From Candidatus Oxydemutatoraceae bacterium (GTDB lineage Bacteria; Pseudomonadota; Gammaproteobacteria; Poriferisulfidales; Oxydemutatoraceae): a stretch of DNA of 64,000 nucleotides. Position numbers and translations under genes: made by a program. Shown here one piece after another: positions 18,145-62,823 of this stretch. Every line of letters starts with the position of its first letter. Position 1 is the first letter of the stretch. Below the pieces are notes generated by a model that was not told where the DNA came from, made no database searches, and saw only the letters and a program-made list of their open reading frames with translations. Where the stretch lies: contig OZ244779.1 in NCBI GenBank assembly GCA_965219575.1, positions 1,772,769 through 1,836,768 of the forward strand. The letters are read 5' to 3'.

Positions 18145-18291
18145 CAAGGTTAGTTTTCATGCTACTACTCTCGCAGATATATTAGGGGTTGATACCCTAA
18201 TGCGATAGTTTACTATGCAATGGTTATCGCACCGGCAGGCGAACATAGGTTCTACTGGAGCGGACCCTCTAAAAATACTTTGACGCGTATC
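18145..18291 (-). repeat. 147-bp block (C-terminal tag codons + 3' flank), copy 1
   Basis: Ungapped match to 27761-27907 (offset 9616), 12 mismatches by manual count. Confidence 0.93.
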
Positions 18292-21200
18292 ATCAAAGCC
18301 GGGCGAGTAGTATAAATTCGCCCTGCCGAGTTAACTACTTCGTCATATCCCTGCCTATCCGTATAGGTCCCTATCACGCGAAATATACTACTCTCTTCTA
18401 CTAAAGGAAATGTTTTATCCCCCTCTAACGATACACTAGAACCCGATATTTCATACGGCGTTCCAATAGCTCCGTCAATATCCATCCAATTGCTCTCCGA
18501 GGGACAACGGCCTTCATTTCCTTCGCATACCTGCCATTGATACACTATAGTCCCACTGGTGCCACCGTCCGGATCCTCGGACGCAACCGATGCCGTCCAT
18601 GTCGACAATGTCGTCCCGCTGCTATCATCTACATCTATTTTTAGCGAAGTTCGCAAAATTGCATCGCCGTTATCTCTCTTGTTCGCTATCACCGACACCA
18701 TTCCCGTCGTAGAGGCAGTTCCATCGCTTACCGTCACCTCTAATTCCACCGTCGTTTCAGACGAAACAACATCGGTTATGAAGTAGTCGGGGATACTTAA
18801 TGTTGCCGGATTTCCGGATACATTTATCCCGGTATATTGGCTATTTACAGACCAATTATAAGTCAATCTATCTCCGTTAGCATCACTTGCATTTACTGTG
18901 ATGCGCTGCATAGCACCCTCATCTATCATCTCGGGTGCCAGAATACTTTCAATGACCGGACTTTCATTTGCAACCCTATACGAATTGGATCGGATTGTCG
19001 CCTCTTGTCCTTGGCTATCGGTTGCGGTAAATGTGATTGTCGCTTCTCCGGCTTGACCGGCGGTTAGTGTAAAAGTGATATTCATGTCCGCTGTGATGTC
19101 GGGAATCTCCATCGGCATCACCAATACGACGGATTGGTTTGAGGACATTGCCGCCACAGCGACTGTGTCGTTCATATCAAAGTTTTGATCCTTCACCGAT
19201 ATCACAATATTCGCAGTACTGCCTGCTTCTATCGTCGGCATCGACGAGGAAATAATCTCGAGGGTCGGGGCTTGGTTTGCTTCTACCGTCACCCTAAACA
19301 CTAGGGAAGCTATAGAATTTATTGTATCTCTGCCGTCATCCACCGTCGCAGTAATTGTTGCCTCACCCTCACTTACACCGGTAATCTCAAGTGTTCGGCT
19401 ACCACCGTCGGTCGCAATAATTATTGCAGTTGCAACAGTTCTGTCGTCGGAGTTAATGCTTACAACGAGATCGTCGTCGTCGGTATCGCGTACTACCACA
19501 TTGAGTGTCGTGCCGGCACCTTCCAACAATGTGATCGATAGAGGAAAAGTAGTCATAATCGTCGGCGTAATGTTTCCTCCGCGTGGCCTAGCTCTCTGGT
19601 CAGGCAGTAAGCTACCACAACGAGGCAATGGTGTCTCCGGTTTCGCATCGCAGGCAGGGTTACCGGTATCATCACCTAGTGCATATTTGACTGCCGGGTA
19701 TTGAACGCTGGTGCCGAAATCCCAGTTGTCACGGCTCCAGCTACTATATATCCCTATTGCCATTGTCGGTGATTGCAGTTCCATCGTAGTTTTAGTTGTG
19801 CCACCGGCACTTGTCTGTATCACACTAGTGTCTATATTCCAGTAGCTGTTCATGATGGAACCAAAGTTACCACCGACTAAACCACCTACACTGTCACTCC
19901 CTAAAACAGAACCCGTCGCATAGCTGTTCGTGATGGTGCCTCTGCTACTACTACTACTATTACCACTATTCCAACCGACTAAACCGCCTACACCAAAATC
20001 TCCTGAAACAGAACCCGTCGCATAGCTGTTCGTGATGGTGCCTCTATTCAAACCGACTAAACCACCTACATCATTACCATTTCCTGAAACAGAACTCGTC
20101 GCATAGCTGATCGTGATGATGCCTCTATTCAAACCGACTAAACCACCTACATCATTACCATTTCCTGAAACAAAACCCGTTGCGTAGCTGTTCATGATGG
20201 TGCCTCCATTATCACCAACTAAACTGCCTATATCTTCACCTCCTATAATATCTACATTTAGCAAACCAACATTAGCAATTGCAGCCTTATTTCCTGCATA
20301 ACCGAATAAGCCAACGATCGAGGTGTCGCTACTATTGATGAAGAGATGAGAGATGTTGTAGCCGTTGCCTTCAAACTTACCGCTAAAAGTATTAGCGGCA
20401 GAATCCCCAATCGGCTGCCAACCTGCTCCTGTAGCCCATATAGTCCTATTTTTCGCCAAACTATAGCTGCCAGCATTGTTAAAATCTAAATTTCTTGTCA
20501 ACTCATAGCCTCTGCATGCGTTATTAGGGCAACCTATTGCAATCTTAGGTGCCGTCTCGCTCTCTCTATAGCCCGTCCCATCCGGTTGATAACGCATCGC
20601 ATTCAATCCCTCTAAATTATCAACTTCTATCAAACCGTTATCATCCCTATCAACATCCCCGTTAAACTCATAATAATTAAGGGAGAGAGTATAACGAACG
20701 GTCTGCGTTATTTGACCTCTGCTCTCAACTTCAATTGTGATCGTAGTTATTCCGCCGGTGTTTAGCGAAATCATACCACTCTCATCACCACTATCCATAG
20801 CTATACCTCTAGCTTCTTCATCAGCCGTAATATAAACCTTGGCATCGGGATTTACTGTTGTTGGTCTGAACTGTATCGTGCTGATACTATTAACTACCGT
20901 CCCTCTGTAGCTCGGCACTACCACATTAAAATCAGGCGACAGATTACCTCTTAATAATTGCAATTCCCTCAAACCATATCTCAGTGCAGGCAACAACAAA
21001 CTACCACAGACAGGTAAATCTGTTGTGGTATCACTCACACTACGACATTCTCTACTATCCGTGTTAGGATTATCCGCATATTTGAGAACCGGGTATTGAA
21101 CGCTGGTGCCGAAATCCCAATTATCACTGCTCCAGCTACTATATATACCTGTTGCCATTGTAGGTGATTGCAGTTCCACCGTAGTTTTAGTCGTGCCACC

Positions 21201-23483
21201 GTCACTTGTCTGTATTCCACTAGTATCTATATTCCAGTAGCTGTCCGTGATAATACTTGAATTAAGACTAACTAAACCGCCTACATTGTCCGCTCCTGAA
21301 ACAGAACTCGTCGCATAGCTGTTCGTGATGGTGCCTCTACTGCTACTACTCCAACCGACTAAACCGCCTACATAGTCACCTCCTGAAATAGAACCTGTCG
21401 CATAGCTGTTCGTGATGGTGCCCCCGTCATTATGACCAACTAAACCACCTATATCCTCATTTCCTGCAATAGAACCCGTCGCATAGCTGTTCGTGATGGT
21501 GCCTTCATTATCACCAACTAAACCGCCTATATCGTCATCTCCTGCAATGGATCCCGTTGCGTAGCTGTTCGTGATGGTGCCTTCATTATCACCAACTAAA
21601 CCGCCTACATTAAAATTCCCTATAATATCTACACTTAACAAACCAACATTAGTGATTTCAGCCCCACCCTCTGCAGAACCAAACAAACCCACATCCTCAC
21701 TTTCACCTCTGCTAATCATAAGACCAGAGAGGGTGTAGCCATTGCCGTTAAACCGACCGCTGAAAGCATTAGAAGAATCCCCAATCGGCTGCCAACCTGC
21801 TCCCGTAGTCCATATAGTCATGTTGGCAACGGAACTATAGCTGTCAGCGTCGTTGAAGTCTAAATCTCTCGTCAATTCATAGCCTATGCATCCGTTATTA
21901 GGACAACCTACTGTAACCTTAGATGCTGTCTCGCTCTCTCTATAGCCCGTCCCGTCCGGCTGATAACGTATCGCATTCAATCCCTCTAAATTATCAATCT
22001 CTATCAAACCGTCGTCATCCCTATCAACATCTCCGCTAAACTCATAATAATTAACGGAGAGAGTATAACGAACAGTCTGCGTTGTTTGACTTCTGTTCTC
22101 AACCTCAATTGTGATTGTAGTTATCCCGTCGGTATTTAACGAAATCATACGACTCGCATCACCGCTATCTATGGCTGGGCTTCTAGCTTCTTCATTGGCC
22201 ATAACATAAACCTTGGCATCGGGATTTACTGTTATCGGTCTGAACTGTATTGTGTTGATACTATTAACTACCGTTCCTCTGTAGCTCGGCACTATCACAT
22301 CAAAATCAGGCGACAGATTACCTCCCACTAATTGCAATTCACTCAAACCTCTGGCGATAGGAGACAACAAACTCCCACAGACAGGTAAATCTGTTGTGGT
22401 ATCACCTACACTACGACATTCTCTACTATCCGTATTAGGATTATCCGTATATTTGAGCACCGGGTATTGAACGCTAGTGCCGAAATCCCAATTATCACTA
22501 CTCCAGCTAAGATATATCCCGGCTGCCGTTGTCGGCGATTGCAATTCCACCGTAGTTTTACTCGTGCCACCGTCACTTGTCCGTATCCCGCTGGTATTTA
22601 TATCCCAGTAGCTATCTGTGGTGGTGCCGGTATCGCTACGACCGACTAATCCACCCGCATTACTATCCCCTGTGACAAGTCCCGTAGCGTAGCTGTTTGT
22701 AATAGTGCCGATATCGTGACGGCCGACTAATCCACCTATCTGAGAAGTCCCTTCAACAGAACCAGTGGCATAGCTACTCGTTATAAGGTTGGTATTCCGA
22801 CCAACTAAACCACCTACACGCGCACTACCTGTAACAGATCCCGTAGCATAACTGTTCACAATAATGCCATAATTCCTACCGACCAAACCACCCGCACGAG
22901 AAGTCCCACCAACAGAAACCGTAGCATAACTACTCATGACGGTGCCCGCATTCCGACCAACTAGACCACCTACGCGAGAAGAAGTTCCGATAATAGAACC
23001 CGTCGCATAAGTATTCGTCATAGTGCTTTCGTTCCAACCCACTAATCCGCCTACATAAGAAGAAAAAGCTATAATATCTATATTCAGTAAACCCAAATTA
23101 GTGATTTCAGTACCACTGCCCGTATAACCAAACAGACCTATGTTGCTTGTGCCACTTCTGTCAATCATAAGATTAGAAATCGTAAAACCGTTGCCGTTAA
23201 ACCGACCGCTGAAAGCATCAGAAGAATCCCCAATCGGCTGCCAGCCCGCTCCCGTAGTCCATGTAATCTTGTTAGCTATTGAACTATAGCTGTCATCGTC
23301 GTTGAAGTCTAAATCTCTCATCAATTCATAACCTTCGTCCAGTTGAAAGCGGATTGCATTTAAGGTTTCCAAATCGTTGATGTCTATCAGCCCGTCGCCA
23401 TCGGCATCTACAACAGTATTAGTTTGAGCAACTATGTTCGCACTGAATAGTGCAAGTAGAACAATCAACAAGAGGGTTTTCAT
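18252..23483 (-). CDS. Large secreted GLUG-repeat / cadherin-like / Ig-like surface protein (1743 aa) with C-terminal KVFLEGPLQ tag
   Basis: Signal peptide MKTLLLIVLLALFSANIVA; three blocks of ITNSYATGSV..VGGLVG repeats, each opened by a DxDxDGLIxI motif; LSPDF..Y cadherin-like domains; Ig-like tail. Confidence 0.85.
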   Translation of the reverse strand: MKTLLLIVLLALFSANIVAQTNTVVDADGDGLIDINDLETLNAIRFQLDEGYELMRDLDFNDDDSYSSIANKITWTTGAGWQPIGDSSDAFSGRFNGNGFTISNLMIDRSGTSNIGLFGYTGSGTEITNLGLLNIDIIAFSSYVGGLVGWNESTMTNTYATGSIIGTSSRVGGLVGRNAGTVMSSYATVSVGGTSRAGGLVGRNYGIIVNSYATGSVTGSARVGGLVGRNTNLITSSYATGSVEGTSQIGGLVGRHDIGTITNSYATGLVTGDSNAGGLVGRSDTGTTTDSYWDINTSGIRTSDGGTSKTTVELQSPTTAAGIYLSWSSDNWDFGTSVQYPVLKYTDNPNTDSRECRSVGDTTTDLPVCGSLLSPIARGLSELQLVGGNLSPDFDVIVPSYRGTVVNSINTIQFRPITVNPDAKVYVMANEEARSPAIDSGDASRMISLNTDGITTITIEVENRSQTTQTVRYTLSVNYYEFSGDVDRDDDGLIEIDNLEGLNAIRYQPDGTGYRESETASKVTVGCPNNGCIGYELTRDLDFNDADSYSSVANMTIWTTGAGWQPIGDSSNAFSGRFNGNGYTLSGLMISRGESEDVGLFGSAEGGAEITNVGLLSVDIIGNFNVGGLVGDNEGTITNSYATGSIAGDDDIGGLVGDNEGTITNSYATGSIAGNEDIGGLVGHNDGGTITNSYATGSISGGDYVGGLVGWSSSSRGTITNSYATSSVSGADNVGGLVSLNSSIITDSYWNIDTSGIQTSDGGTTKTTVELQSPTMATGIYSSWSSDNWDFGTSVQYPVLKYADNPNTDSRECRSVSDTTTDLPVCGSLLLPALRYGLRELQLLRGNLSPDFNVVVPSYRGTVVNSISTIQFRPTTVNPDAKVYITADEEARGIAMDSGDESGMISLNTGGITTITIEVESRGQITQTVRYTLSLNYYEFNGDVDRDDNGLIEVDNLEGLNAMRYQPDGTGYRESETAPKIAIGCPNNACRGYELTRNLDFNNAGSYSLAKNRTIWATGAGWQPIGDSAANTFSGKFEGNGYNISHLFINSSDTSIVGLFGYAGNKAAIANVGLLNVDIIGGEDIGSLVGDNGGTIMNSYATGFVSGNGNDVGGLVGLNRGIITISYATSSVSGNGNDVGGLVGLNRGTITNSYATGSVSGDFGVGGLVGWNSGNSSSSSRGTITNSYATGSVLGSDSVGGLVGGNFGSIMNSYWNIDTSVIQTSAGGTTKTTMELQSPTMAIGIYSSWSRDNWDFGTSVQYPAVKYALGDDTGNPACDAKPETPLPRCGSLLPDQRARPRGGNITPTIMTTFPLSITLLEGAGTTLNVVVRDTDDDDLVVSINSDDRTVATAIIIATDGGSRTLEITGVSEGEATITATVDDGRDTINSIASLVFRVTVEANQAPTLEIISSSMPTIEAGSTANIVISVKDQNFDMNDTVAVAAMSSNQSVVLVMPMEIPDITADMNITFTLTAGQAGEATITFTATDSQGQEATIRSNSYRVANESPVIESILAPEMIDEGAMQRITVNASDANGDRLTYNWSVNSQYTGINVSGNPATLSIPDYFITDVVSSETTVELEVTVSDGTASTTGMVSVIANKRDNGDAILRTSLKIDVDDSSGTTLSTWTASVASEDPDGGTSGTIVYQWQVCEGNEGRCPSESNWMDIDGAIGTPYEISGSSVSLEGDKTFPLVEESSIFRVIGTYTDRQGYDEVVNSAGRIYTTRPALMIRVKVFLEGPLQ

Positions 23484-23650: not shown

Positions 23651-26600
23651 TCATTTATCCAGCAAATCTAAGTTTGTATCGTGCAACGGCCGGGCTGTGC
23701 GCAGCGAAGCCGGCGATGCAGTAAACCATTTCCTTACGTTCAAGCCGTCATGAGTATGCCCACTTTGCCGATCAAAGGTGCCGTGGCTGTGTGGATAAGT
23801 ACTGGTTTGCTCGTATTTACCGTTGATTGTCGTTATGTGCGGTGGCGGAATGGTGCCGAGCGACTCGGGCAATTCCTTTTCAAAAATACTCACGGCGGCA
23901 TCCATGACGATATCGGCGATAGTACAAAACAAGTGTTGTGTGTTGCCATTGCGACAGAGACTTGAAACGGTATCGGCCATGGCGCCCACGATGGTGCCGG
24001 TATCGGTTTTTCGCAGCGCAGACAAACCATCCATAGTCACCGAACCTAAACCTCGAGTAGCCTCGTAGTAGCTGTAAACAAAATCACCATCTCCTCGTCG
24101 ACTAAATTGTTCGATATACTCGTTCAATTCATCCAACTGCCCGGAAGTTGCAGGATGATTTTCATCCGTCAATAGGATTACGGCGATGCGGAAATGTCGC
24201 TGCGCATCTTCCGAATTAGGAACCCGTGCCCCGTGAGTGGCAATAATATCCTCTATAGTAAGTGTCTGTACATTGCTTGCGGTGAAAATCGGTTGCCCAT
24301 TCGTTGTGGCTCTCGTAGAACCGCCCTCTTCTAATAACCAACGACCATCCTCGGCCACCCAGAGATCCGGAACATCTTCCGGTGCCAGAAGACCTGCAAA
24401 ATAAAGTTCTATCGAACTATAGGGAACAATATTGCCACGATTGGCAATTGTCCCAAAACTACCGGCGGTGTATTGCCCATCCCCTAAATCAACCAAGTCG
24501 GCGATATCAAATCCGCCAAGTTGCCCATCTGCGCTACTAAATCCCCAATGTCCACCATAGGCTGTCGGTATGGTATAGTTTGCCCACGCATGCTGCAGTT
24601 CGTGTAGCGAGGGACCATACAGTAGTAATCCTTTTTCGGGAAAGTGCATTACGCCTTTCAAGGTATTCGCAGAACCGTACCGATTGTCATAAAATTTGGC
24701 TAAACCTATTCCTTCAACATCGTTCCGAACCCTAAGATATACACCGTAATAAAAAATATTCTCATGATCATCGATATCGTCAAGATTGGAGAAGAACATC
24801 AAGAAATCAAAACTATCCTCAAAATGTTTGTATAATTGCGATGCGTAGGCATCAAGATTAAGTCCTCTAAATGCCGTTCCGCGCGTGATATCCTCGTCAA
24901 TACGCATTACAATCACATTATCATTATGCACAAAAATATCCTGAGATACGCTCACTCGGAATTGAACCTCATCTTCGTTTCCTAAGCTATCGGTGATAAT
25001 GATTGTCGCTGTCGTATTACCTAATCCTATTAGTGTGATTGCAAACTCTGCGGTTCTCGTCACTTCGTCAGTAGCGTCGGATAAAATTATTGTATCCGTA
25101 GCAATAGATATAACCGACTCGCCACCTTCATCTAATTCTAATGTCATTGACACAGGCAGGTCATAAGCCTCAACGACGACCGGCAAATTAGTCACCGAAT
25201 TTTCATCTTTTTTTATTAGATGCACGGTCCGACCTTCTGCCGGACTGATTATTTTCACATAGTTGGATTCTTGAGCAACACGAAATCCAAAAGATTGATA
25301 TTCTATGGACGCATAAGCATTGCGAGAGAAGGAAAAAATATCATTCAGCGAACTGTTCCAAGCTCCACCACGCACTACATAACTTTGGAAAGGACATCCA
25401 TCAGACCAAGCACTGCCGTCCGACGGTGCACCCTCGTAGCCATAGTGCCAACAATCCTCTACCCACTCACCGACATTACCATGTATATCATGTAGCCCGA
25501 AGGCATTCGCAGGATAACTACCAACTCGAACAGTCCCTCGACAAGGAGAATTAGCTATTGAACCGCAACCGGAATGCCAATAGCGCGCCTGACTCGATAA
25601 AATCGTCGAACCGAAATGATACGGTGTGGTTGTTCCTGCCCTAGCTACATATTCCCACTCCGCTTCGGTCAACAAGCGATATTTCTTCTTTGTTTTTCTC
25701 GATAACCAACGAGTGTATGCTTGCGCATCATGCCATGAAACGCACACAACCGGATGGTTATCAAATTGCGAAAAACCCGGAGAACGCCAATTAAGATTGG
25801 TGCCATAGTCATACCTATCGCCAATATATTCGAAGCAATCATCGTATGTGAAGCGTCTTGTCTCGTCGACAAATGCCTCATACTGTCCGCGAGTCACTTC
25901 GTATTTTCCGACTGCAAAGGAGTTGGAGATAGTAACTAAATGTTGTGGTTGGGAAGAGCCCAAATAATATCTCCTTTCGCCTATGGTTATATAAGACCCT
26001 GTCGACCCCATCATAAACTGCCCTGCCGGCACTACGACCATCTCAGGACAAGTCGGACAATCACTAAAAGTTTTATCCGAAATATCCTGAAATACGCTCA
26101 CCCGAAATTGAACCTCATCTTCGTTTCCTAATCTATCGGTGATAATGATTGTCGCTGTCGTATCACCTAATCCTATTAGTGTGATTGCAAACTCTGCGGT
26201 TCTCGTCACTTCGTCAATAGCGTCGGATAAAATTATCGTATCCGTAGCAATAGATATAACCGACTCGCCACCCTCATCTAATTCTAATGTCATTGACATA
26301 GGCAGGTTATGAGCCTCAGCGACGACCGGCAAATTAGTCACCGAATCTTCATCTTTGTTTATGAGATTCACGGTCTGACCTTTTGCCGGACTGATTATTT
26401 TCACATAGTCGGATGCCTGAGCAACCAACCGAAATTGAACCTCATCTTCATTTCCTAAGCTATCGGTGATAATGATTGTCACTGTCGTATTACCTAATCC
26501 TATTGGTGTGATAGCAAACTCTGCGGTTCTCGTCACTTCGTCGGTAGCGTCGGATAAAATTATTGTATCCGTAGCAATAGATATAACCGACTCGCCACCT

Positions 26601-27763
26601 TCATTTAATTCTAATGTAATTGACACAGGCAGGTTATAAGCCTCAACGACGACCGGCAAATTAGTCACCGAATCTTGATCTTTTTTTATGAGATGCACGG
26701 TCCGACCTTCTGCCGGACTGATTATTTTCACATAGTTGGATACCTGAGCAACACGAAATCCAAAAGATTGGTATCTGGACGGGAAAGCATTGCGAGAGAA
26801 GGAAAAAATGTCATTAAGCGAATTGGCCCAAGCTCCACCACGCACTACGTAATCTTGGGAAGGACATCCATCAGACCAAGCACTGCCGTCCGACGGTGCA
26901 CCCTCGTAGCCATAGTGCCAACAATCCTCTACCCACTCACCAACATTACCATGTATATCATGTAGCCCGAAGGCATTTGCAGGATAACTACCAACTCGAA
27001 CAGTCCCTCGACAAGAAGAATTAGCTATCGAACCGCAACCGGAATGCCAATAACGCGCCTGACTCGGTAAAATCGTTGAACCGAAATGATACGGTGTAGT
27101 TGTTCCTGCCCTAGCTACATATTCCCACTCCGCTTCGGTCAACAAGCGATATTTCCTTTTTGTTTTTTTTGATAACCAACGGGTGTATGCTTGCGCATCA
27201 TGCCCTGAAACGCACACAACCGGGTGGTTATCAAATTGCGAAAAACCCGGAGAACGCCAATTAAGATCAGTGCCATAGTCATACCCATCGCCAATATATT
27301 CGAAGCAATCATCGTATGTGAAGCGTCTTGTCTCGTCAACAAATGCCTCATACTGTTTGCGAGTCACTTCGTATTTTCCGACTGCAAAGGAGTTGGAGAT
27401 AGTAACTAAATGTTGTGGTTGGGAAGAGGAACCCAAATAATATGTCCTTTCGCCTATGGTTATATAATATCCTGTCGCCCCCATCATAAACTGCCCTGCC
27501 GGCACTACGACCATCTCAGGACAAGTCGGACAATCACTAAAAGTTTTATCCGACCGGAAAATTCTGCTTGCTTCACTAGTGCCACCCCCCATAAGAGCAC
27601 CTTCTAGGAAAACTTTGGCTCGCACCTTTACATTAGTTGTCGACATATCTATTTGTGCATTTGCCGATAGAGAATACACGCTAGCCGTTATAGCTATAAC
27701 GCTTAAAAACGACATCCTAATAATCCCCCTGACGTTCTCCTTCTTTTTAGTGTCCATATCCAA
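23651..27763 (-). CDS. Secreted protein: KVFLEGAL tag, two FGE-sulfatase (CLec-fold) domains, three Ig-like repeats, HExxH metallopeptidase-like C-domain
   Basis: DCPTCPEMVVVPAGQFMMG, YRLLTEAEWEYVARAG, NAFGLHDIHGNVGEW and VVRGGAW..GFRVA each occur twice; HELQH...HWG; signal ending ANA|Q; start codon uncertain. Confidence 0.85.
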   Translation of the reverse strand: MDMDTKKKENVRGIIRMSFLSVIAITASVYSLSANAQIDMSTTNVKVRAKVFLEGALMGGGTSEASRIFRSDKTFSDCPTCPEMVVVPAGQFMMGATGYYITIGERTYYLGSSSQPQHLVTISNSFAVGKYEVTRKQYEAFVDETRRFTYDDCFEYIGDGYDYGTDLNWRSPGFSQFDNHPVVCVSGHDAQAYTRWLSKKTKRKYRLLTEAEWEYVARAGTTTPYHFGSTILPSQARYWHSGCGSIANSSCRGTVRVGSYPANAFGLHDIHGNVGEWVEDCWHYGYEGAPSDGSAWSDGCPSQDYVVRGGAWANSLNDIFSFSRNAFPSRYQSFGFRVAQVSNYVKIISPAEGRTVHLIKKDQDSVTNLPVVVEAYNLPVSITLELNEGGESVISIATDTIILSDATDEVTRTAEFAITPIGLGNTTVTIIITDSLGNEDEVQFRLVAQASDYVKIISPAKGQTVNLINKDEDSVTNLPVVAEAHNLPMSMTLELDEGGESVISIATDTIILSDAIDEVTRTAEFAITLIGLGDTTATIIITDRLGNEDEVQFRVSVFQDISDKTFSDCPTCPEMVVVPAGQFMMGSTGSYITIGERRYYLGSSQPQHLVTISNSFAVGKYEVTRGQYEAFVDETRRFTYDDCFEYIGDRYDYGTNLNWRSPGFSQFDNHPVVCVSWHDAQAYTRWLSRKTKKKYRLLTEAEWEYVARAGTTTPYHFGSTILSSQARYWHSGCGSIANSPCRGTVRVGSYPANAFGLHDIHGNVGEWVEDCWHYGYEGAPSDGSAWSDGCPFQSYVVRGGAWNSSLNDIFSFSRNAYASIEYQSFGFRVAQESNYVKIISPAEGRTVHLIKKDENSVTNLPVVVEAYDLPVSMTLELDEGGESVISIATDTIILSDATDEVTRTAEFAITLIGLGNTTATIIITDSLGNEDEVQFRVSVSQDIFVHNDNVIVMRIDEDITRGTAFRGLNLDAYASQLYKHFEDSFDFLMFFSNLDDIDDHENIFYYGVYLRVRNDVEGIGLAKFYDNRYGSANTLKGVMHFPEKGLLLYGPSLHELQHAWANYTIPTAYGGHWGFSSADGQLGGFDIADLVDLGDGQYTAGSFGTIANRGNIVPYSSIELYFAGLLAPEDVPDLWVAEDGRWLLEEGGSTRATTNGQPIFTASNVQTLTIEDIIATHGARVPNSEDAQRHFRIAVILLTDENHPATSGQLDELNEYIEQFSRRGDGDFVYSYYEATRGLGSVTMDGLSALRKTDTGTIVGAMADTVSSLCRNGNTQHLFCTIADIVMDAAVSIFEKELPESLGTIPPPHITTINGKYEQTSTYPHSHGTFDRQSGHTHDGLNVRKWFTASPASLRTARPLHDTNLDLLDK

Positions 27764-27907
27764 AGTTAGTTTTCATGCTATTACTCTCGCAGATATACTA
27801 GGAATTGATACTCTAATGCGATAGTTTACCATGCAATGGTTGTCGCACCGGCATATGAACATAGGTTCTACTGGAGCGGACCCTCTAAAAATACTTTGGC
27901 GCGTATC
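27761..27907 (-). repeat. 147-bp block (C-terminal tag codons + 3' flank), copy 2
   Basis: Ungapped match to 18145-18291. Confidence 0.93.
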
Positions 27908-27919
27908 CTAATAGCTGAA

Positions 27920-30650
27920 GCAGTGACATCCACCGACACAGTCTCACTATCGCTTAACCCGCCGCTATCGGTGGCGGTGAAGGTAATCGTTGCTTCTCCT
28001 TCTTGCTCGGCACTAATCACAAAGGTTGTAATCGTATCCGTGGTTATATCGGCAGCTTGCACCGGTGTTACCGAAACAATCGTTCGGCTCGACGACATCG
28101 CCTCCAATGTAACAATATCGTCCAAATTGAAATTATCATCCGCTACCAAGACAGCGATTTGAGCCGCACTATTGACCGGTAGCGTTTGCGCCGATGACGG
28201 TGTAATCATAATCGTCGGTGTAGTATTCGCCTCCACTCGTACTTCAAATTGTGCCGAGACCTCCGAGTTTGCTACACCTCTGTCGTCGTTCACCGTCACC
28301 GTAATCACCGCACGACCGGCACCGACACCGCTAACCTCAAGCGTACGGGTGGCATCGTCGGTTGCGATAATCGTTGCGGTTGCAATCATACTATCGCCGG
28401 TATTAATTCTTACACTGAGGCTATCGTCGGCATCGGCATCGTTTATCGCAACATCAAACTCGGTACTCAAACCTTCCAACAACCTAATCGGTTGCTCGGG
28501 AATACCGCTCAGCGTCGGTGCCGTATTGACACGCACCACTAGCTCTACACTATCGCTTAACCCACCGCGGTCGGTTGCGGTGAAGGTAATCGTCGCTTCT
28601 CCGCCTTGCTCGGCACTAATCCTAAAGGTTGTAATCGTATCCGTGGTTATATCGGTAACTTGCGCCGGTGTCACCGATATAATCGTTTGGCTTGACGACA
28701 TTGCCGCCAGTGCGACAATATCATTCAAATCGAAATTGCTATCCGTAACCGAGACGATGGTATCGGTCGTGGTATTGACCGGTAGCGTTTGCGCCGATGA
28801 CGGTGTAATCATAATCGTCGGTGTAGTGTTCGCTTCGACTTGTACTTCAAACTCTGCCGAGACCTCCGAGTTTGCTACACTTCTGCCGTCATTTACCGTC
28901 ACCGTAATCGTTGCTTCGCCCTCACCGACACCGCTAACCTCAAGCGTACGGGTGGCATCGTCGGTTGCGATAATCGTTGCGGTTGCAATCATGCTATCGC
29001 TGGTATCAATTCGTACATTGAGGCTATCGTCGGCATCGGCATCGTTTACCGCAACAGAAAGCTCGGTACTCAAACCTTCCAACAACCTGATGGGTTGCTC
29101 GGGAATACCGCTCAGCGTCGGTGCCGTGTTGACACGCACCGCTAGTTCTATACTATCGCTTAACCCGCCGATGTCGGTTGCGGTGAATGTAATCGTCGCT
29201 TCTCCGCCTTGCTCGGCACTAATCCTAAAGGTTCTACTCGTATCCGTCGTTATATTAGCAACTTGCACCGGTGTCACCGAAACAATCGTTCGGCTTGACG
29301 ACATTGCCGCTAATGTGACAATATCATTCAAATCGAAATTGCTATCCGTAACCGAGACGATGGTATCGGTCGTGCTATTGACCGGTAGCGTTTGCGCTGA
29401 TGACGGTGTAATCATAATCGTCGGTGTAGTATTCGCCTCCACTCGTACTTCAAATTGTGCCGAGACCTCAGAGTTTGCTACACCTCTGTCGTCATTCACC
29501 GTCACCGTAATCACCGCACGACCGGCACCGACACCGCTAACCTCAAGCGTACGGGTGGCATCGTTGGTTGCGATAATCGTTGCGCTCGCAATCATGCTAT
29601 CGCCGGTATCAATTCTTATACTGGGGCTGTCATCGGCATCGGCATCGTTTACCGCAACAGAAAGCTCGGTACTCAAACCTTCCAACAACCTGATGGGTTG
29701 TTCGGGAATACCGCTCAGCGTCGGTGCCGTATTGACACGCACCGCTAGTTCTACACTATCGCTTAACCCGCCGATGTCGGTTGCGGTGAATGTAATCGTC
29801 GCTTCTCCGCCTTGCTCGGCACTAATCCTAAAGGTTCTACTCGTATCCGTCGTTATACCGCCAGTTTGCGTTGATGTCACCGAAACAATCGTTCGGCTTG
29901 ACGACATTGCCTCCAGTGTGACGATATCGTCCAGATTGAAATTATCATCCGCCACCGAGACAACGATAGCCGCCGTGCTATTGATTGGTAGCGTTTGCGC
30001 TGTTGATGGTGTAATCATAATCGTCGGTGTAGTATTCGCTTCCACTTGCACTTCAAATTGTTCCGAGATCCTTGAATTTGCTACACCTCTGCCGTCATCC
30101 ACCGTCACCTTAATCGTTGCCTCACCCTCACCGACACCGACAACCTCAAGTGTGCGGGTGGCATCGTCGGTTGCGATAATCGTTGCGGTTGCAATCATGC
30201 TATCGCTGGTATCAATTCTTACATTGAGGTTATCGTCTGCATCGGCATCGTTTATCGCAACATCAAACTCAGTACTCAAACCTTCCAATAATCTGATGGG
30301 TTGCTCGGGAATACCGCTCAGCGTCGGTGCCGTATTCACACGCACCGCTAGCTCGGCATGAGCACTCAAGCTGTTTCGGTCGGTTGCGGTGAATCTAATC
30401 GTCGCTTCTCCGCCTTGCTCGGCATTCAGCACGAAGCGCACACTCGTATCGGTCGTTATGTCGGCAATGCGCGCCGGCATCACCGAGACCACCGATGGGG
30501 TTGACGATACCGCCGTCAATGTAACAACATCGTCCAAATCGAAATTGCTGTCCGCAACCGAGACGATGGTATCGGTCGTGCTATTGACTGGTAGCGTTAG
30601 TGCCGATGACGGTGCAAGCAATAACGTTGGAACGGTATTCTCTTCCACCG
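27920..30650 (-). repeat. Intragenic tandem repeat, 603-bp (201-aa, two Ig-like domains) unit, about 4.5 copies
   Basis: VRVNTAPTLSGIPEQPIRLLEGLSTE recurs every 603 bp; another copy near 32500-33100; boundaries approximate. Confidence 0.9.
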
Positions 30651-33600
30651 TCACATCAAACACCAAAGAAGCCGTTGCATTGGCTTCGCCGGTGCCGTCA
30701 TCCACCGTTGCGGTAATCATCGTCTCACCGGCACGCTCTCCGCTAATCGTAAGCATGCGGGTGGTTCCGTCCCCGCTAATCATTGCGCTTGCAATCGTAT
30801 CGTCGGTGGAGGTGACTTCTACATTCAATGTACTGCCGTCCCTATCGTCCACCGACACCGGCACCATGATTAGCTCTCCCTCCAACAATGTGATATTGGT
30901 GTCTTGGGAGTCATCAACCCTAATCGTCGGTGTCGTGTTTTGTCCCAGCCTCGCACCTAGATTCGACGAGTATACACTCCTCGTATAGTCTTGCAAGTCG
31001 GTATACGCTATCCGCACACGGAACCTGTCGCCTGGGCTTACTTCATGGTCTTGAGGTGCCGATAACGTGGTCGGAACATCGTAGGAAATCTCAATATCGC
31101 CTAAAGTGCCACTCTGCCCGGCAATGTCTTCCCAACCCGAACCGTCACCCTCATCTATCAGACAATTCCTGTTGAGACTTCCTAGACACTGTTGCCAGTG
31201 ATAGGTCATAGTTCCGCTCACGCCACCGTCGGTCTCACCCGTCGCATCTATGCCGGTAAAGATTAATATTGTCTCGGTCGTAGATCTGGTGAGGTCATTT
31301 ATCGACACCACGCCATTATCTTCCTTGTTCACCACTATCGCGTACACTCCTGTCGTAGTAGTCGCCCCGTCGCTCACTTCCACCACAAAGCTCGCCGTCG
31401 CCGTAGTAGCAGTTGCGTCGGTCACAAAGTAGTCGCGAATAGTTAACGGTGCCGTCTCTCCCGACACATCGGCTTCGTCGGCATTGATGCTACTCACACG
31501 CCAACGATAGCTTAAGTTGTCGAAGTTCTCGTCGGAAGCCTCGGCAGTCATCCTCACCATGCCACCTTCGCTCACCGGTGAAGGTGCGACATTAACCAGC
31601 GTAATCGTCGGTGCAATGTTCGGTACCGTATACACATCGGATTGCGTCGTCACCAATTGTCCGATGTTATCTACAACCGTTGCCTCCAGCCTATAGCGTG
31701 TGCCGGCGGTTCGCGACGGTCTATCGTAGGGGATGCGATATTCATTCTCGGTTGCACCGTCTATCAAAGTGTTGTTAATGAACCACCGATAGCTCGTCGA
31801 CGTAATCCCGTTGGCATCGGCGAGCGTTGAAGTCGTACTCAGCTGCCATCTATCGTCGCTGTCCGGTTCTATGCGTACAGCACCGGTCAGCGGGGCATCT
31901 ACCACTAGTGTGAAGCTCGCCTGCACGCGACCACCTCTGCCGTCATCCGCCGAGACTCTCACGATGGATCCTGCCGCGGTTTGGCTGGCATCGGCATTGG
32001 TTGCCGTGAAGGTCCATACACCGGTCATGGTGCTGAAGTTGCCTATCAAGCCACTCATCGGTTCTATTGCAATATCGTGTGTCAATGTGTCGCCGTCGGC
32101 ATCGCTGAAGAAGTCGCTGATATCTCGTTCAAACGGCTCGCCGACCGTTGCGATAATAGCTCGAATCGGCACCCGAGGTGTCGGTGGAGTATTGACAGCT
32201 ACCTCCAAAGTACGACTACTGCTTAAATCTGTGCCATCTGTTGCGGTCACTTTGATTTCCGCTATACCCGCTTTGTTCGCTCTCAGTGCCAAGGTTACAC
32301 GGGTATCCGACCCGATATCGCCAATCCGCTCCGGCATCACCGATACGATCGTTCGGCTCGACGATGCTGCCGTCAATGTGATACGATCGCCGAAGCTAAA
32401 ATTACCATCCGATACACTAATCACTAGGTGTGCGGTGCTGCCCAGTTGTATCGGCTGTTCAGGTGTGGCAACAATCTCAAGTGCCGGGGCCACGGTGCCC
32501 CCCACCTGCACCGTAAATTGTGCCGAGACCTCCGAGTTCGCTACACCTCTGCCGTCGTTCACCGTCACGGTAATCGTCGTATTGCCGGCACCGACACCGA
32601 CAATCTCAAGCGTGCGGACATTACCGGTGGTTGCGATAATCGTTGCGGTTGCAATCATGCTGTCGCTACTATCAATTCTTACACTGAGACTATCTTCGGC
32701 ATCGGCATCGTTTATCGCAATATCAAATTCGGTACTCAAACCTTCCAACAACCTGATGGGTTGCTCGGGAATACCGCTCAGCGTCGGTGCCGTATTGACA
32801 CGCACTGGTATTTCTACACTATCGCTTAACCCACCGCGGTCGGTTGCGGTAAATGTGATTGTCGCTTCTCCGCTTCGCTCGGCACTAATTATAAAGGTTG
32901 TAATCGTATCCGTGGTTATATCGGCAACTTGTGTCGGTGTCACCGAAACAATCGTTCGGCTTGACGACATCGCCTCCAGTGCGACGATATCGTCCAAATT
33001 GAAGTTATCATCCGCCACCGAGACGAATATATGAGCCGTACTATTGATTGGTAGCGTTTGAGCCGATGACTGTGTAATCATAATCGTCGGTGTAGTGTTC
33101 GCTTCCCGGGGGCTAATCATATAAATAGTAACCTCGCGATCGGCTTCGGTGACCGTGATGACTAATGCGGTGTTTGCATCTATAGGAATAGGCTCGCTTC
33201 GCCCGTCGCCACCTTGGTTTGCAAAATAATCGGTATCCTCGCCTTGTCTAACTATTTTGATCGTCGCATCGGTATTATAGGCTTTTAATCGCAGGGTGAT
33301 GTCACTAGTCCTAAAAGCAAAAAAACTTACAACATAATGGGCGGTTGTAGCCCCGAAAATTGGGGTCAATCTTGCACCGTGTGTCAATACTTCTAAATCT
33401 CTTAGACCTACGCCTTGACCCGACAACAAAATATCGCTATCCGCAGATTTGAGGATCGGATATTGGATGCTAGTACCGAAATCCCAGTCGCCGGTACTCC
33501 AGCCACTATATATCCCGGTTGCCGTTGTCGGTGATTGCAGTTCCACTAGGGTTTGCGTTGAACTGTTTGTGATAGTAGGAGAACCAGAAGAAGAACCGAC

Positions 33601-48176: not shown

Positions 48177-48284
48177 CCGCCGATTGAGCCAGTAGGTCAA
48201 TCGGCAATACAAAGCCGCCGATTGAGCCAGTAGGTCAATCGGCAATACAAAGCCGCCGATTGAGCCAGTAGGTCAATCGGCAAT
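48177..48284. repeat. Tandem array of a 38-bp palindromic GTAG-containing unit (about 3 copies)
   Basis: CCGCCGATTGAGCCAGTAGGTCAATCGGCAATACAAAG; GTAG at 48192, 48230 and 48268. Confidence 0.95.
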
Positions 48285-48342
48285 TATGATGTGCGCCCGA
48301 TAGGTTGATCGGCGTTACATTGTTCAGGACTACGATAATAAT

Positions 48343-59991: not shown

Positions 59992-62823
59992 ATGAGAAAG
60001 CAACTGAAAATAACAATCTCGGCACTATGTTTAGTCATTTTTACAATAGCAGAAACCAATGCTTTTATGATGACAAACTCTTATCCATCTAGCAAAACAT
60101 TAGCTGCGCAGTCGGTAAATAATACCGGAATGAATACCTACGAGGCTATAATGCTTCAACAGGTACAGCAAAATTTCAATCCTGTAGGGATTTGGCAACT
60201 TACAGCAGCCGAAGCTACAGGATTTCAATGTTCCGTTGATGTTGATATCGATATTAATGATCTTCTTGACTTTTCTCAAGTAAACACAGAGCTTGATGCT
60301 GTGGTGACATCTAATAGATTAAGTATTGTAAATAGACAAACATCAGCAGTATATACGGAAATCCGCAGACATCCGCCCAATCGATATATACTCGAAAACA
60401 GGGGAAGCTTCTCTCAATTTGTGAATGGCCTCTTAGTTCGAGTGGTAGGAAGGGATGCAGTAGACCTTACTCTTATCTCTGATGAGGAAGTAGTAGGAAC
60501 AGGTGTTGTAACCGCAACCGTAACTGCAGAAGCGATAAACTTTGAAGTTCGTTGCTCTGCTACTTACACGATAGCGGCAAAAAAAATTAGTTCCCCCCGT
60601 TTATCTAAGCTTTCTTTATCTACGGGAACACTGCATCCGAACTTTGACGGCACAGTCTTTAGGTATTTTGCAGCCGTTCCCAATAATACTCGACAAATTA
60701 CGCTGAGATTGAATGCCGAGGAGAGTAACAACACGATCACCGTCAACGGCAATCGGATAACCGGAACTGCAACTATTCCCCTAGGTTCTAATACCGATAC
60801 GATTACCGTAGGTATACGGACGGCAGACGGTAATAGAACAAATACTTACATCGTTGATATCATACGGCTTGCACAACGAAATTTTAATCCCGTAGGAACT
60901 TGGGAAACCACTGCGAGAGAAAATATAAACCTTCAATGTCCCTTGCTTCCCAATTTAAGTTTAAGCCGTGACGATTTTGACCCGATAGGCAGAGAGTACG
61001 ATATAGTCATGACATCGGGCGGGTTAAACCTCATAGATAGAGTGGATTCGGAAACGTCTACCGAAATTGGCAGAAATATACCGAATCGTTATAGCTTGCA
61101 ATACATTGAGAGAGAGTCTATATCCGAACAAGGTGTCACATTGACAATAGAAGGAACGAGCACTCTAGATTTTATCCTGATCTCCGATGAGGAAGCGATA
61201 GTTGCGGTTGTCAGGGACATAAAAGTGACGAGCCTCGAAAATATTCCCTGCCTTACATCGTATACGGTAAGCGCAAAAAAAGCCGCAATATCTACTGCTA
61301 TCCTAAAAGATATTTCATTATCGGCAAGCACGCTTAACTCAATCTTCACCGGCTTAGTCAGGAATTATTCTGCAACCGTTGACAGTGGTGTCGGCCAACT
61401 TGGGATAACGATTGAAACTTCCCATATAAATCAATCGGTCACGATAAACGGTACCACACTATCCAGAGGCTTAAATCGTAGTCAATTGATAAGTAGTACG
61501 GTACCGCTAAGCGTGGGTAACAATACGATCGTTATAGGAGTGACATCGGCGGACGGCATATTGACATCAAGCTACACTTTGCAAGTTATCCGTCGAAGCC
61601 CTGCTTTGATCGGATTGTCTTTATCTCCCGGAACGCTCAACCCCGGCTTTAGTAGAGAGAGATTAAGATATGCAGCAACCGTAGAGAGTGATATAGAACG
61701 AATTACACTAACTCCTACAGCCGATAGTGCCGGACATAGGGTCATCATTACCGCCAACGGAAGATCTATAAACGGAAATTCAGTTCCTTTGAATGTAGGA
61801 GACAATACCATAGCTATCTCGGTCACTACGCGAGACAGTCAAGCAACGACAAGATACACCTTAACTGTAAGGCGATTAGAACCCTGCTTGACCGACCTCT
61901 TCTTATCATCGGGATCACTCAGCCCAACCTTCGGTAATCCCAGTCAATGCAGTAATGCAGCGATACGATATGCGGCAACCGTAGAGAGTGATATAGAACG
62001 AATCACATTAACCCCTACAGCCAATAGTGCCACACATACAATCGCCATTACTGCCAACGGAAATTCTATAACCGGAAATACAGTTCCTCTGAATGTGGGA
62101 GACAATACTATAGCTATTTCAGTCACTACGCGAGACAGTCGAGCAACGACAAGATATGTCGTAACTGTAAGGCGATTAGAGCCCTGCTTGACCGACCTCT
62201 CTCTATCGTCGGGATCACTCAGCCCGACCTTCATAACATGCTCGGATGAAACGGTAAATTACCGAGCAATCGTGAGAAACAATGTAAGCCAAATTGAAAT
62301 AACGGCTACGGCAAATAGTATCGCACATACGATTACTTTCAACAGTAATCAAAATAGTACGGTACCGCTAAGCGTAGGCGACAATACGATTACCGTATCG
62401 GTAACAACGGCAGACGGTATGGCTAGAAAAGATTACAACTTAGTTATAAGACGTTTAAGTACGGCAACTTTAACCGGACTAACAGTGGAAGTAAATTCGC
62501 AAATGCTAGAACTAAACCCTAACTTCAGCCTTATCAACTTAGACTACAGAATAAATGTAGAAAATACTATGACCCTTGTTACTATACAACCTACGGCCTC
62601 GGCCGGTCGCATCATCAGGGTACGCTATACACCGGACGATGGCACCGCAATTGACCGTCTCGTCTCGAGTGGCGATACGGTTACCATAACGCCATTGTTC
62701 TATGGTAAGAATAATGTCTACATCGATGTTATGCACAACGGTGCTATGGAGAGATATTCACTAGCCGTGATTATAGGTGTTATTCTGCGTATAAAATTAT
62801 TTTTAGAAGGTGCCTTGCAATAA
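59992..62823 (+). CDS. Secreted protein with six cadherin-like beta-sandwich repeats, two NFNPVGxW domains and C-terminal KLFLEGALQ tag
   Basis: Signal peptide; LSLSxGxLxPxF..Y.A.V and VPLxVGxNTIxIxVT repeats; two Cys-containing NFNPVG(I/T)W...LISDEE...YTxxAKK domains. Confidence 0.85.
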   Translation: MRKQLKITISALCLVIFTIAETNAFMMTNSYPSSKTLAAQSVNNTGMNTYEAIMLQQVQQNFNPVGIWQLTAAEATGFQCSVDVDIDINDLLDFSQVNTELDAVVTSNRLSIVNRQTSAVYTEIRRHPPNRYILENRGSFSQFVNGLLVRVVGRDAVDLTLISDEEVVGTGVVTATVTAEAINFEVRCSATYTIAAKKISSPRLSKLSLSTGTLHPNFDGTVFRYFAAVPNNTRQITLRLNAEESNNTITVNGNRITGTATIPLGSNTDTITVGIRTADGNRTNTYIVDIIRLAQRNFNPVGTWETTARENINLQCPLLPNLSLSRDDFDPIGREYDIVMTSGGLNLIDRVDSETSTEIGRNIPNRYSLQYIERESISEQGVTLTIEGTSTLDFILISDEEAIVAVVRDIKVTSLENIPCLTSYTVSAKKAAISTAILKDISLSASTLNSIFTGLVRNYSATVDSGVGQLGITIETSHINQSVTINGTTLSRGLNRSQLISSTVPLSVGNNTIVIGVTSADGILTSSYTLQVIRRSPALIGLSLSPGTLNPGFSRERLRYAATVESDIERITLTPTADSAGHRVIITANGRSINGNSVPLNVGDNTIAISVTTRDSQATTRYTLTVRRLEPCLTDLFLSSGSLSPTFGNPSQCSNAAIRYAATVESDIERITLTPTANSATHTIAITANGNSITGNTVPLNVGDNTIAISVTTRDSRATTRYVVTVRRLEPCLTDLSLSSGSLSPTFITCSDETVNYRAIVRNNVSQIEITATANSIAHTITFNSNQNSTVPLSVGDNTITVSVTTADGMARKDYNLVIRRLSTATLTGLTVEVNSQMLELNPNFSLINLDYRINVENTMTLVTIQPTASAGRIIRVRYTPDDGTAIDRLVSSGDTVTITPLFYGKNNVYIDVMHNGAMERYSLAVIIGVILRIKLFLEGALQ

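Follow-up and report, generated by a model that had tools for sequence, protein, structure and literature searches.

The KVFLEG tag, a peptide of 12–14 residues at the C-terminus of exported proteins in a genome of the family Oxydemutatoraceae, is probably the detached first strand of an X-module-like sandwich, the rest of which is carried by small secreted acceptor proteins (Acc), the two parts together forming a split docking system. If this is true, what addresses a protein is the completion of an adaptor fold, in place of a sortase-type enzyme or a signal to a translocon.

Tag copies in the window, the genome and the family

The window, the whole stretch of 64 kb that was analysed, contains three C-terminal tags, one N-proximal variant and the genes that carry them:

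18252..18290, minus strand: tag 1, IRVKVFLEGPLQ plus stop codon, the C-terminus of a 1743-aa signal-peptide protein
18252..23483, minus strand: cargo gene 1, encoding a signal peptide, three GLUG-repeat blocks, Ig-like domains (Big_2, Big_9) and then tag 1
23651..27763, minus strand: cargo gene 2, encoding a 1370-aa protein with two FGE-sulfatase domains and the N-proximal tag
27590..27625, minus strand: N-proximal tag variant VRAKVFLEGALM, internal, inside cargo gene 2 and followed by a GGG linker
27868..27906, minus strand: tag 2, IRAKVFLEGPLQ plus stop codon, after a complete Ig repeat and in place of the inter-repeat linker
27868..37761, minus strand: 3′ fragment of a giant GLUG/Ig gene, 3297 aa, without its own signal peptide, ending in tag 2
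37842..38516, minus strand: IS1595-family transposase gene (DDE_Tnp_IS1595, 119 bits), inserted in the giant GLUG/Ig gene
38562..40847, minus strand: 5′ fragment of the giant GLUG/Ig gene, 761 aa, with the signal peptide MKTLLLIILLALFSTNIVAQ and GLUG repeats
59992..62823, plus strand: cargo gene 3, encoding a 943-aa signal-peptide protein with five cadherin-like β-sandwich domains and tag 3 at its end
62785..62823, plus strand: tag 3, LRIKLFLEGALQ plus stop codon, with codons unlike those of tags 1 and 2

All four KVFLEG peptides named in the original prediction are present where it placed them, with tag 1, tag 2 and the N-proximal variant on the minus strand. The three C-terminal tags had further been assigned to signal-peptide proteins; this holds for tags 1 and 3, while the ORF that ends in tag 2 has no signal peptide because the gene has been split by the transposase, which leaves the signal peptide on the 5′ fragment. 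Pfam and NCBIfam searches of the four window proteins found no known sorting signal or secretion domain.

In a six-frame scan of the 2.37-Mb genome with [VLIA]FLEG[PAS], 37 of the 42 matches lay exactly 8 residues ahead of a stop, that is, at a C-terminus, and the terminal enrichment that the original prediction had proposed to look for genome-wide was thus confirmed; a degenerate DNA pattern of the tag gave 35 matches in the genome against 0 for the reversed pattern, and the motif is far above chance. The consensus reads hydrophobic-R-hydrophobic-R-x-K-[VL]-F-L-E-G-[PA]-L-x-COOH, and its hydrophobic and basic residues alternate in the manner of a β-strand. The carriers are about 31 substantial exported proteins, including GLUG/Ig/cadherin giants, a subtilase and Calx-beta proteins, while three copies are internal (in the FGE-domain enzyme and in two LRR proteins). 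Among the 31 tagged ORFs with 150 aa or more, a crude script recognised a signal-peptide-like N-terminus in 27; two of the four misses have one by eye and the other two are truncated ORFs. The size of the cargo extends to 16,068 aa.

Tags 1 and 2 can be aligned at the DNA level for about 135 nt beyond the stop, which points to a duplicated 3′ end, and these two tags are therefore not independent of each other. It is barely credible that all the tails are DNA-level artefacts without a protein function, derived from a repeated element (for instance the end of a MITE, a recombination site or a duplicated 3′ cassette), even though this shared stretch, the richness of the genome in intergenic palindromic repeats and, in the family genome G006, 50-aa mini-ORFs with the tag at their end that recur about every 156 nt would all suit such an origin. 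Among the 37 copies every tag codon varies synonymously and all three stop codons are used (TAG 19, TAA 14, TGA 4), from which it follows that selection acts on the peptide; moreover, the sequences past the stop mostly differ between copies, and the peptide is conserved across genera despite different codons. An origin of the tag in a DNA element was ruled out on the synonymous variation and the mixed stops.

It is also very improbable that the tag is the integral last strand of the preceding cargo domain, or a self-associating strand that links cargo proteins to one another, with no dedicated partner in either case. The Ig repeat ahead of tag 2 is complete without the tag, so the tag is not the last strand of that repeat, and the simplest objection anticipated for the original prediction does not apply; the tag also occurs behind unrelated architectures, and the copy in the FGE protein has no domain ahead of it. 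The alternation of hydrophobic and basic residues is that of a β-strand, and a slight likeness to the tag is seen in PIRLLEG, the opening strand of the following Ig-type repeat, but a structural strand would not be expected to stay nearly invariant from one unrelated protein to another.

Tags or tag variants are found in all six sampled genera of the family, and their last residue is constant within a genome and varies between genomes (Q, R, E, N). An apparent limitation of the tag to one genus was rejected as an artefact of a strict pattern, as a relaxed pattern and a tag profile gave variants in other genera; when 10 loci were checked for this, two of them (L138, L141) had no tag in the frame printed by the script. 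An occurrence outside the family was likewise rejected, the global scan having given 7 singleton matches, all in tiny ORFs and ascribed to chance.

Fused modules and putative strand-less acceptors

A search of 301 Bacteroidota genomes for the motif KVFL[EQ]G[PA]Y gave 8 matches, spread over 6 genomes (about 0.25 matches expected, by our own estimate), and 7 of the 8 open a C-terminal module composed of a sandwich and a dockerin, the fused modules starting V-x-[AVL]-KVFL[EQ]G[PA]Y; the Bacteroidota domain beginning with KVFLEGPY, which the original prediction had mentioned, was thereby recovered. A profile of the module matches 15,758 representative proteins (E ≤ 0.001) and, among PDB sequences, dockerins at E 1e-3. 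The sandwich part has no Pfam family, and an unnamed sandwich-plus-dockerin C-terminal module is thus brought to view. An AlphaFold model of the fused module has a pLDDT of 85.3, with about 94 in strand 1, and in a Foldseek search of the PDB its top 10 matches were all X-module–dockerin dyads of type II cohesin–dockerin complexes at probability 1.00, the target-normalised TM being about 0.6 and the model being that of a fused homologue and not of Acc. The tag matches strand 1 of this module; the N-proximal variant VRAKVFLEGALM, which lies 9 residues past the predicted signal-peptide end (...SANAQ), matched the Bacteroidota module profile weakly (positions 3–26, E 0.2).

In a genome of a sister genus (G005), fused modules start with TIRARVFLQGAY, TVRAGVFLQGAY and similar sequences, and 25 module matches lie within ORFs of 687 to 17,496 aa; neither a stand-alone Acc nor a tag-region match was found in G005. 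The Oxydemutatoraceae genome under study has no fused module. The fused modules of G005, together with its lack of stand-alone Acc and tag, form a Rosetta-stone pattern that was counted in favour of a split module, in which the cargo would keep strand 1 only and Acc the remaining sandwich and the dockerin. Searching the studied genome with the Bacteroidota profile gave two ORFs, both outside the window, that were matched only from position 49 or 57 on (E 1.5e-16 and 6.5e-13):

Genome C1:2216875–2217765, minus strand: AccA, a small secreted protein with the rest of the sandwich and a dockerin
Genome C1:2246056–2246925, minus strand: AccB, a small secreted protein with the rest of the sandwich and a dockerin

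Both have a signal peptide, and in a 38-row alignment the mature chains begin at a conserved M/L directly after strand 1; as read from their sequences, AccA and AccB are the module minus exactly strand 1. AccA matches Pfam Dockerin_1 at 33.5 bits (cut-off 22.9), and PF00404 is annotated on many of 33 Acc homologues; a search of the ESM Atlas returned only "hypothetical protein" clusters. Within the family, 16 of 18 further genomes gave an Acc match, compared with 0 of 34 from the remainder of the order, and G011 has neither Acc nor tags; this distribution and the joint absence were counted as co-occurrence, again in favour of a split module. When sequences were compared by eye across genomes, no N-terminal residue of Acc followed the last residue of the tag in a clear pattern. 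In one metatranscriptome library (X1), six contigs of 152–277 nt match the AccA locus with full identity, covering portions of AccA, of its partner and of the region upstream, and two sister libraries contain no such contigs from the AccA locus; DNA carry-over into X1 is possible, and the contigs were therefore not counted as expression.

Predicted complex, downstream partner and proposed docking

A complex was predicted from AccA residues 28–269 and the last 45 residues of the tag-1 protein. The scores were 0.81, 0.85 and 0.85, against 0.18 for the best control, and they pass a mark that 58 of 80 solved complexes and 2 of 110 mismatched pairs attain; at least 79% of the contacts agreed between runs, and the pLDDT of the 45-residue partner in the complex was only 48–52. 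Predicted contacts involve only partner residues 29–45 (RPALMIRVKVFLEGPLQ), which run between the AccA strands LLQNGYV and YTYDFT, at residues 105–111 and 180–185, and the tag is thus predicted to occupy the strand gap of AccA. The predictor may recognise the intact fold of the fused relatives, so the pass means that the tag fits and not that it binds. The original prediction had the tag completing a receptor by strand addition, and suspected a split domain with its acceptor half encoded elsewhere; the former is supported in silico by the predicted complex and the latter by the two strand-less Acc genes outside the window.

A distinctly unlikely alternative is that the tag is a relic of strand 1 whose present reader is a different machinery, for example a component of type II secretion, an Omp85-type protein, or a PDZ domain or protease that binds C-termini, and that Acc has an unrelated role together with its neighbour gene. 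A reader of free C-termini would produce a last residue that is fixed per genome and differs between genomes, as is found, and the protein encoded next to AccB has no tag. Internal copies, however, cannot offer a free C-terminus, and no candidate reader stands next to tagged genes: in the low-tag genomes G007 and G018, where one was looked for, the neighbours are cytochrome c peroxidase, pseudouridine synthase and ABC-transport genes. The same alternative does not sit well with an Acc chain that starts exactly at the tag end, with an AccA–tag prediction that passes its controls, or with the absence of both Acc and tags from G011.

For 15 of 15 Acc genes, from five genomes of the genus, the same N-terminal domain is encoded within about 1.5 kb downstream, at the start of a large protein that usually ends in a GlyGly-CTERM-like tail. 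The model of this domain has a pLDDT of 71.7, which is moderate confidence, and its top 10 Foldseek matches in the PDB are cohesins; Pfam PF00963 (cohesin) has no match in this genome, a profile of the partner domain matched no cohesin among PDB sequences, and G005, the sister-genus genome with fused dockerin modules, has no match to the cohesin-like domain profile. The AccA partner comprises 4598 aa and is itself tag-bearing; the AccB partner is without a tag, so tag binding does not account for why Acc and partner genes are neighbours. A rhombosortase gene (TIGR03902, 144 bits) follows the gene of the AccB partner.

In the split docking system proposed here, cargo and Acc would be exported by Sec, as their signal peptides suggest, and the tag of the cargo would enter Acc as its missing central strand by donor-strand complementation in trans. 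The dockerin of Acc may then bind the cohesin-like N-terminal domain of the protein encoded downstream, a step put forward on fold similarity and gene adjacency. The AccB partner would be held at the envelope via its GlyGly-CTERM/rhombosortase anchor, while the AccA partner, bearing a tag itself, could give rise to chains of units, and the outcome would be that adhesin-type proteins are displayed in a cellulosome-like manner. As a more tentative proposal, orphan strands on dozens to hundreds of proteins could be gathered by X-dockerin adaptors on cohesin-like scaffolds, either lipid- or membrane-anchored (GlyGly-CTERM) or tag-ended and chaining, in a natural tag-and-catcher "adhesome". Orphan first-strand tags may represent a general, unrecognised class of bacterial sorting signals.

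Counted against the split docking system are the odd stoichiometry, with about 31 substantial cargo genes sharing 2 Acc genes in this genome and 216 tag-pattern matches facing 1 Acc match in G006; the three internal tags, for which the chain would need to exit the sandwich via a linker; and the cohesin, which is without sequence support, is known from a model of moderate confidence only and has no profile match in G005. Few Acc genes for many cargo genes would suit a recycling factor, as would be the case if Acc were a periplasmic chaperone or pilot that the tag enters transiently by strand complementation, the cargo being kept export-competent or passed to an outer-membrane translocon by analogy with PapD. 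This is unlikely. It shares the split-domain evidence with the adaptor reading and could draw on the four secretin genes of the genome, one of which (2254932–2255411) lies near the AccB locus. But Acc retains its dockerin, and its gene is always accompanied by one for a cohesin-like, membrane-anchored protein, a combination that better suits a stable scaffold, and in the fused relatives the module remains in the mature protein by construction.

Relation to known systems

The closest structural parallel is found in the type II cohesin/XDoc dyads of C. thermocellum CipA and A. cellulolyticus ScaA (PDB 2b59, 4wi0, 4u3s, 5k39, 3kcp), where an Ig-like module likewise directly precedes a C-terminal Ca-binding dockerin; shared features are a dockerin detectable with Pfam and a neighbouring gene whose product has a cohesin-like fold in the model. 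Unlike in these dyads, the X-like module appears to be divided between two proteins, the cargo contributing strand 1 and a second secreted protein the remainder. The setting differs as well, a Gram-negative sponge symbiont whose cargo is made up of adhesin-type and eukaryote-like repeat proteins and not of glycoside hydrolases. Sequence searches detect no cohesin, and the sandwich has no Pfam family. If the proposal is true, cohesin–dockerin logic reaches Gram-negative symbionts, and the mounting of giant adhesin-like and eukaryote-like repeat proteins on uncultured sponge symbionts becomes testable with mature Acc and a 14-residue peptide.

In chaperone–usher pili and in the type V pili of Bacteroidia, a strand from another polypeptide with alternating hydrophobic residues completes an incomplete Ig-like sandwich. 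Acc, a sandwich without one strand, and the tag, with its alternating hydrophobic residues, are predicted to stand in the same relation of acceptor and donor; the difference is that the donor here is a C-terminal, rarely internal, tag on dozens of unrelated proteins and not a pilin, and that one or a few dedicated, dockerin-bearing adaptors would serve as the acceptor. SpyTag/SpyCatcher is an engineered pair in which a short peptide completes an Ig-like domain on a separate protein, whereas the present system is natural and is predicted to be genome-wide and presumably non-covalent; it might serve as a natural, orthogonal pair of peptide tag and binder.

Among the matches listed in the literature for dockerin and X module, none contained "donor strand", and none of those listed for Porisulfidus or Oxydemutator concerned the tag. 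No paper joining rhombosortase and dockerin was found, and nothing relevant was found on dockerin or cohesin in sponge symbionts. The type IX secretion CTD, a β-sandwich of about 70–100 aa, gave no Pfam or NCBIfam match in the window proteins or in the Bacteroidota modules. An outer-membrane β-signal is an aromatic end of a barrel, and the tag ends in Q, R, E or N; the window proteins contain no barrel or autotransporter domain in Pfam, in agreement with the original prediction.

The LPXTG/sortase, PEP-CTERM/exosortase and GlyGly-CTERM/rhombosortase systems are likewise based on a short, lineage-specific C-terminal signature on many signal-peptide proteins. The tag differs from these tripartite signals in lacking a transmembrane helix and a basic tail, its stop standing two residues past FLEG[PA], and its proposed reader is a binding domain and not a processing enzyme. 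NCBIfam sorting-signal models had no match in the four window proteins, and the dissimilarity to PEP-CTERM, GlyGly-CTERM and LPXTG signals that had been claimed at the outset holds for every described sorting-signal model searched. The genome also possesses a true GlyGly-CTERM/rhombosortase system, which adjoins AccB.

Tagged genes of the window

The tag is a KVFLEGPLQ-type strand of ~12–14 residues carried by exported cargo. All four copies named in the original prediction were found in the window, and the features around them are as follows:

18252–18290, minus strand: tag 1, the C-terminus of a 1743-aa signal-peptide protein with GLUG, Big_2 and Big_9 domains
27868–27906, minus strand: tag 2, the end of a 3297-aa ORF without a signal peptide
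62785–62823, plus strand: tag 3, the C-terminus of a 943-aa signal-peptide protein with five cadherin-like domains
27590–27625, minus strand: fourth tag, an N-proximal variant nine residues past the signal-peptide end and followed by a GGG linker, in a 1370-aa protein with two FGE-sulfatase domains
18117–18290 and 27733–27906, minus strand: duplicated stretch shared between two loci (last 12 codons plus ~135 nt past the stop)
37842–38516, minus strand: IS1595-family transposase gene (DDE_Tnp_IS1595, 119 bits)
14155–16062 and 16159–18027, minus strand: a 635-aa and a 622-aa ORF, immediately downstream of the tag-1 gene
298–462, 13816–13980, 40849–40998, 48171–48298 and 58049–58432, both orientations: intergenic palindromic repeats with the core GCCGATTGAGCC...GGTCAATCGGC

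A signal peptide had been assigned to each of the C-terminally tagged proteins; it is present for tags 1 and 3, but the tag-2 ORF has none. The giant GLUG/Ig gene ending in tag 2 is interrupted by the transposase gene, giving a 761-aa 5′ fragment (38562–40847), which bears the signal peptide, and the 3297-aa 3′ fragment, and because of this split the gene is probably inactive or truncated. Since the DNA similarity of tags 1 and 2 continues ~135 nt past the stop, the two are a single duplicated 3′ end, of which the copy at 27733–27906 extends as far as the FGE gene's start region; the codons of tag 3 differ from those of both. Neither ORF downstream of the tag-1 gene has a Pfam match. Elsewhere in the window, a 119-nt unit occurs four times in tandem (3016–3610; 95–97% identity for three of the copies), next to the start of ORF 3503–5587. 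The tag as simply the last strand of the preceding Ig domain, a reading raised with the original prediction, was checked and rejected: the Ig repeat is complete without the tag and aligns fully with the internal repeats, the tag replacing the inter-repeat linker.

Frequency and distribution of the tag

The genome containing the window (G000) holds it in one contig of 2,369,097 bp, and the frequency of the tag there exceeds chance. In its six-frame translation, [VLIA]FLEG[PAS] has 42 matches, 37 of which end in FLEG[PAS]Lx-stop; of the other five, three are internal, lying in the FGE protein and in two LRR/FN3 paralogues, one carries a four-residue extension and one belongs to an unrelated membrane protein. 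A degenerate DNA pattern gave 35 matches against 0 with a reversed control. Selection acts on the peptide: the 37 C-terminal copies show synonymous codon variation at every position, and are followed by TAG (19), TAA (14) or TGA (4). Of the 31 tagged ORFs that reach 150 aa, a crude script assigned a signal-peptide-like start to 27; in two of the four it missed, such a start is visible by eye, and the other two ORFs are truncated. The six tagged frames below 150 aa look like remnants. The cargo is diverse: besides proteins of the GLUG, Ig, cadherin-like and Calx-beta kinds, there are a P-domain subtilase and several proteins without a Pfam family, and the largest tagged ORF reaches 16,068 aa. 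In tagged proteins, and in the Acc proteins described below, almost all signal peptides end in A-Q (e.g., 23424–23483 and 27650–27720), so mature chains would start with Gln; conversion of N-terminal Gln to pyroglutamate is known in exported Bacteroidota proteins.

A global scan of ~185,000 species genomes returned 38 stretches with the tag pattern, of which 31 are labelled Candidatus Porisulfidus (26), Candidatus Oxydemutatoraceae (2) or one 'Chromatiales' MAG (3), and the remaining seven are singletons inside tiny ORFs. Within the order, the strict pattern occurs in 5/5 genomes of the genus and 2/5 of a second genus. The relaxed pattern gave 36 matches in G000 and, among its relatives (G001–G018), 17 in G001 and G002, 15 in G003, 13 in G004, 216 in G006, 26 in G017, 17 in G018, 7 in G007 and 6 in G014; the other nine genomes had 0 to 3, the control level. 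In the control-level genera, divergent tails were sought with a tag profile and ten fetched loci, and were present in eight of these loci: RIRVFLEGAVIP-stop in G010 and G013, RVRVFLQGALQ-stop in G009, and LKVFLSGVVR-stop and LKVFLGGLVR-stop in G015 and G008. The final tag residue is near-constant inside a genome and varies between genomes: G000 has Q in 35 of its 37 copies and R in two, G002 and G006 use R, G017 and G018 use E, and G007 has either Q or N. In the sister-family genome G006 (loci L119, L120), the 216 matches have the form FLEGPLR-stop, many lie on tandem paralogues of 350–430 aa, and 50-aa mini-ORFs, each with the tag at its C-terminal end, recur at a spacing of ~156 nt.

Fused module and candidate acceptor

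The original prediction pointed to a similar KVFLEGPY at the start of a larger domain in Bacteroidota, and this held. Of 301 Bacteroidota genomes, 6 contain KVFL[EQ]G[PA]Y, with 8 matches in total (control 0; ~0.25 expected, our estimate from the information content of the pattern), and 7 of the 8 matches open a conserved C-terminal module. The module runs from this first β-strand (strand 1) through a ~130-aa sandwich (VDWVLLELR ... RHRNHL.vMS) to dockerin-like repeats; Pfam and NCBIfam recognise the dockerin part alone and have no model for the sandwich. The fused-module profile matches 15,758 representative public proteins at E ≤ 0.001 (5,434 at E ≤ 1e-30). Among the best 150 of these, nearly all matches start at profile positions 3–9 and therefore include strand 1, mostly at the extreme C-terminus of host proteins of many lengths. 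G005, a sister genome, has 25 matches, all within ORFs of 687 to 17,496 aa; in 20 fetched stretches each module opens with a strand-1 sequence, e.g., TIRARVFLQGAY, and profile and pattern searches of G005 found neither a stand-alone Acc nor a match to the tag region. The fused-module model (pLDDT 85.3, pTM 0.83; strand 1 ~94) has as its top 10 PDB neighbours only X-module–dockerin dyads of type II cohesin–dockerin complexes, whose fold it resembles.

The acceptor half had been proposed to be encoded elsewhere, and in silico two ORFs of G000 match the module without strand 1, with the tag predicted to fit:

C1:2216875–2217765, minus strand: AccA, small secreted protein
C1:2246056–2246925, minus strand: AccB, small secreted protein

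They are the only ORFs of G000 matched by the Bacteroidota profile (E 1.5e-16 and 6.5e-13), from position 49 or 57 onward; the FGE-protein tag matches weakly at positions 3–26. In both, the signal peptide is followed at once by the conserved M/L...[LI]P..DPY segment, which in fused forms comes after strand 1. AccA contains Pfam Dockerin_1, and public data hold 33 unnamed Acc homologues of 252–313 aa. The tag is homologous to strand 1 and the two halves are precisely complementary; fused and split forms stand in a Rosetta-stone relation.

For complex prediction, AccA 28–269 and the C-terminal 45 residues of the tag-1 protein were each supplied as an alignment. The three scores, 0.81, 0.85 and 0.85, compare with 0.18 for the best control; of 80 solved complexes, 58 attain the score mark, as do 2 of 110 mismatched pairs, counts only roughly valid here because our own alignments were used. 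Contact agreement between runs was at least 79% (partner-chain pLDDT 48–52), and AccA is contacted only by partner residues 29–45, exactly the tag, placed between AccA 105–111 and 180–185 beside AccA's own N-terminus. As modelled, the tag fits as the missing strand of AccA, which is evidence of fit rather than of binding.

Cohesin-like neighbour and proposed three-part model

In the five genomes of the genus, 15/15 Acc genes have downstream, on the same strand and within ~1.5 kb, a gene for a large signal-peptide protein, all of these sharing an N-terminal domain. This domain is found in 17/18 other genomes of the family and in 0/34 elsewhere in the order. Sequence methods did not detect a cohesin in it, while its model, of moderate confidence (pLDDT 71.7), has cohesins as all top 10 PDB neighbours. 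At their C-terminus, the partners in G000 (that of AccB), G006, G008, G010 and G015 have a stretch rich in Gly, a transmembrane segment and basic residues; the partner of AccA, 4598 aa long, ends instead in IRLRIKVFLEGPLQ-stop. Two further features lie outside the window:

G000:C1:2240775–2246925: operon in which AccB stands with a 1484-aa protein whose tail is GlyGly-CTERM-like and with a rhombosortase gene (TIGR03902, 144 bits)
G000:C1:1073020–1073853, plus strand: third cohesin-like domain copy, inside a 7908-aa tagged protein, far from its N-terminus

Phyletic and gene-order links and fold similarities connect these parts, and the complex prediction passes its controls. The best-supported model has three parts: cargo would carry strand 1, the adaptor Acc would combine a dockerin with an X-like sandwich lacking strand 1, and a cohesin-like scaffold would be GlyGly-CTERM-anchored or tagged itself. 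The tag would actually bind Acc, and the dockerin would pair with the cohesin-like domain; the surface location and the export route we infer. The main points against the model are stoichiometry, the nature of the complex predictor, G005 without a cohesin-like domain, and a cohesin assignment made only at the fold level. In a limited literature collection, searched at the level of listings, no description of a tag–Acc system was found; new here are the acceptor, the fused relatives, the cohesin-like partner and the wider tag distribution. A secretin gene is located at 2254932–2255411, ~8 kb from the AccB operon.
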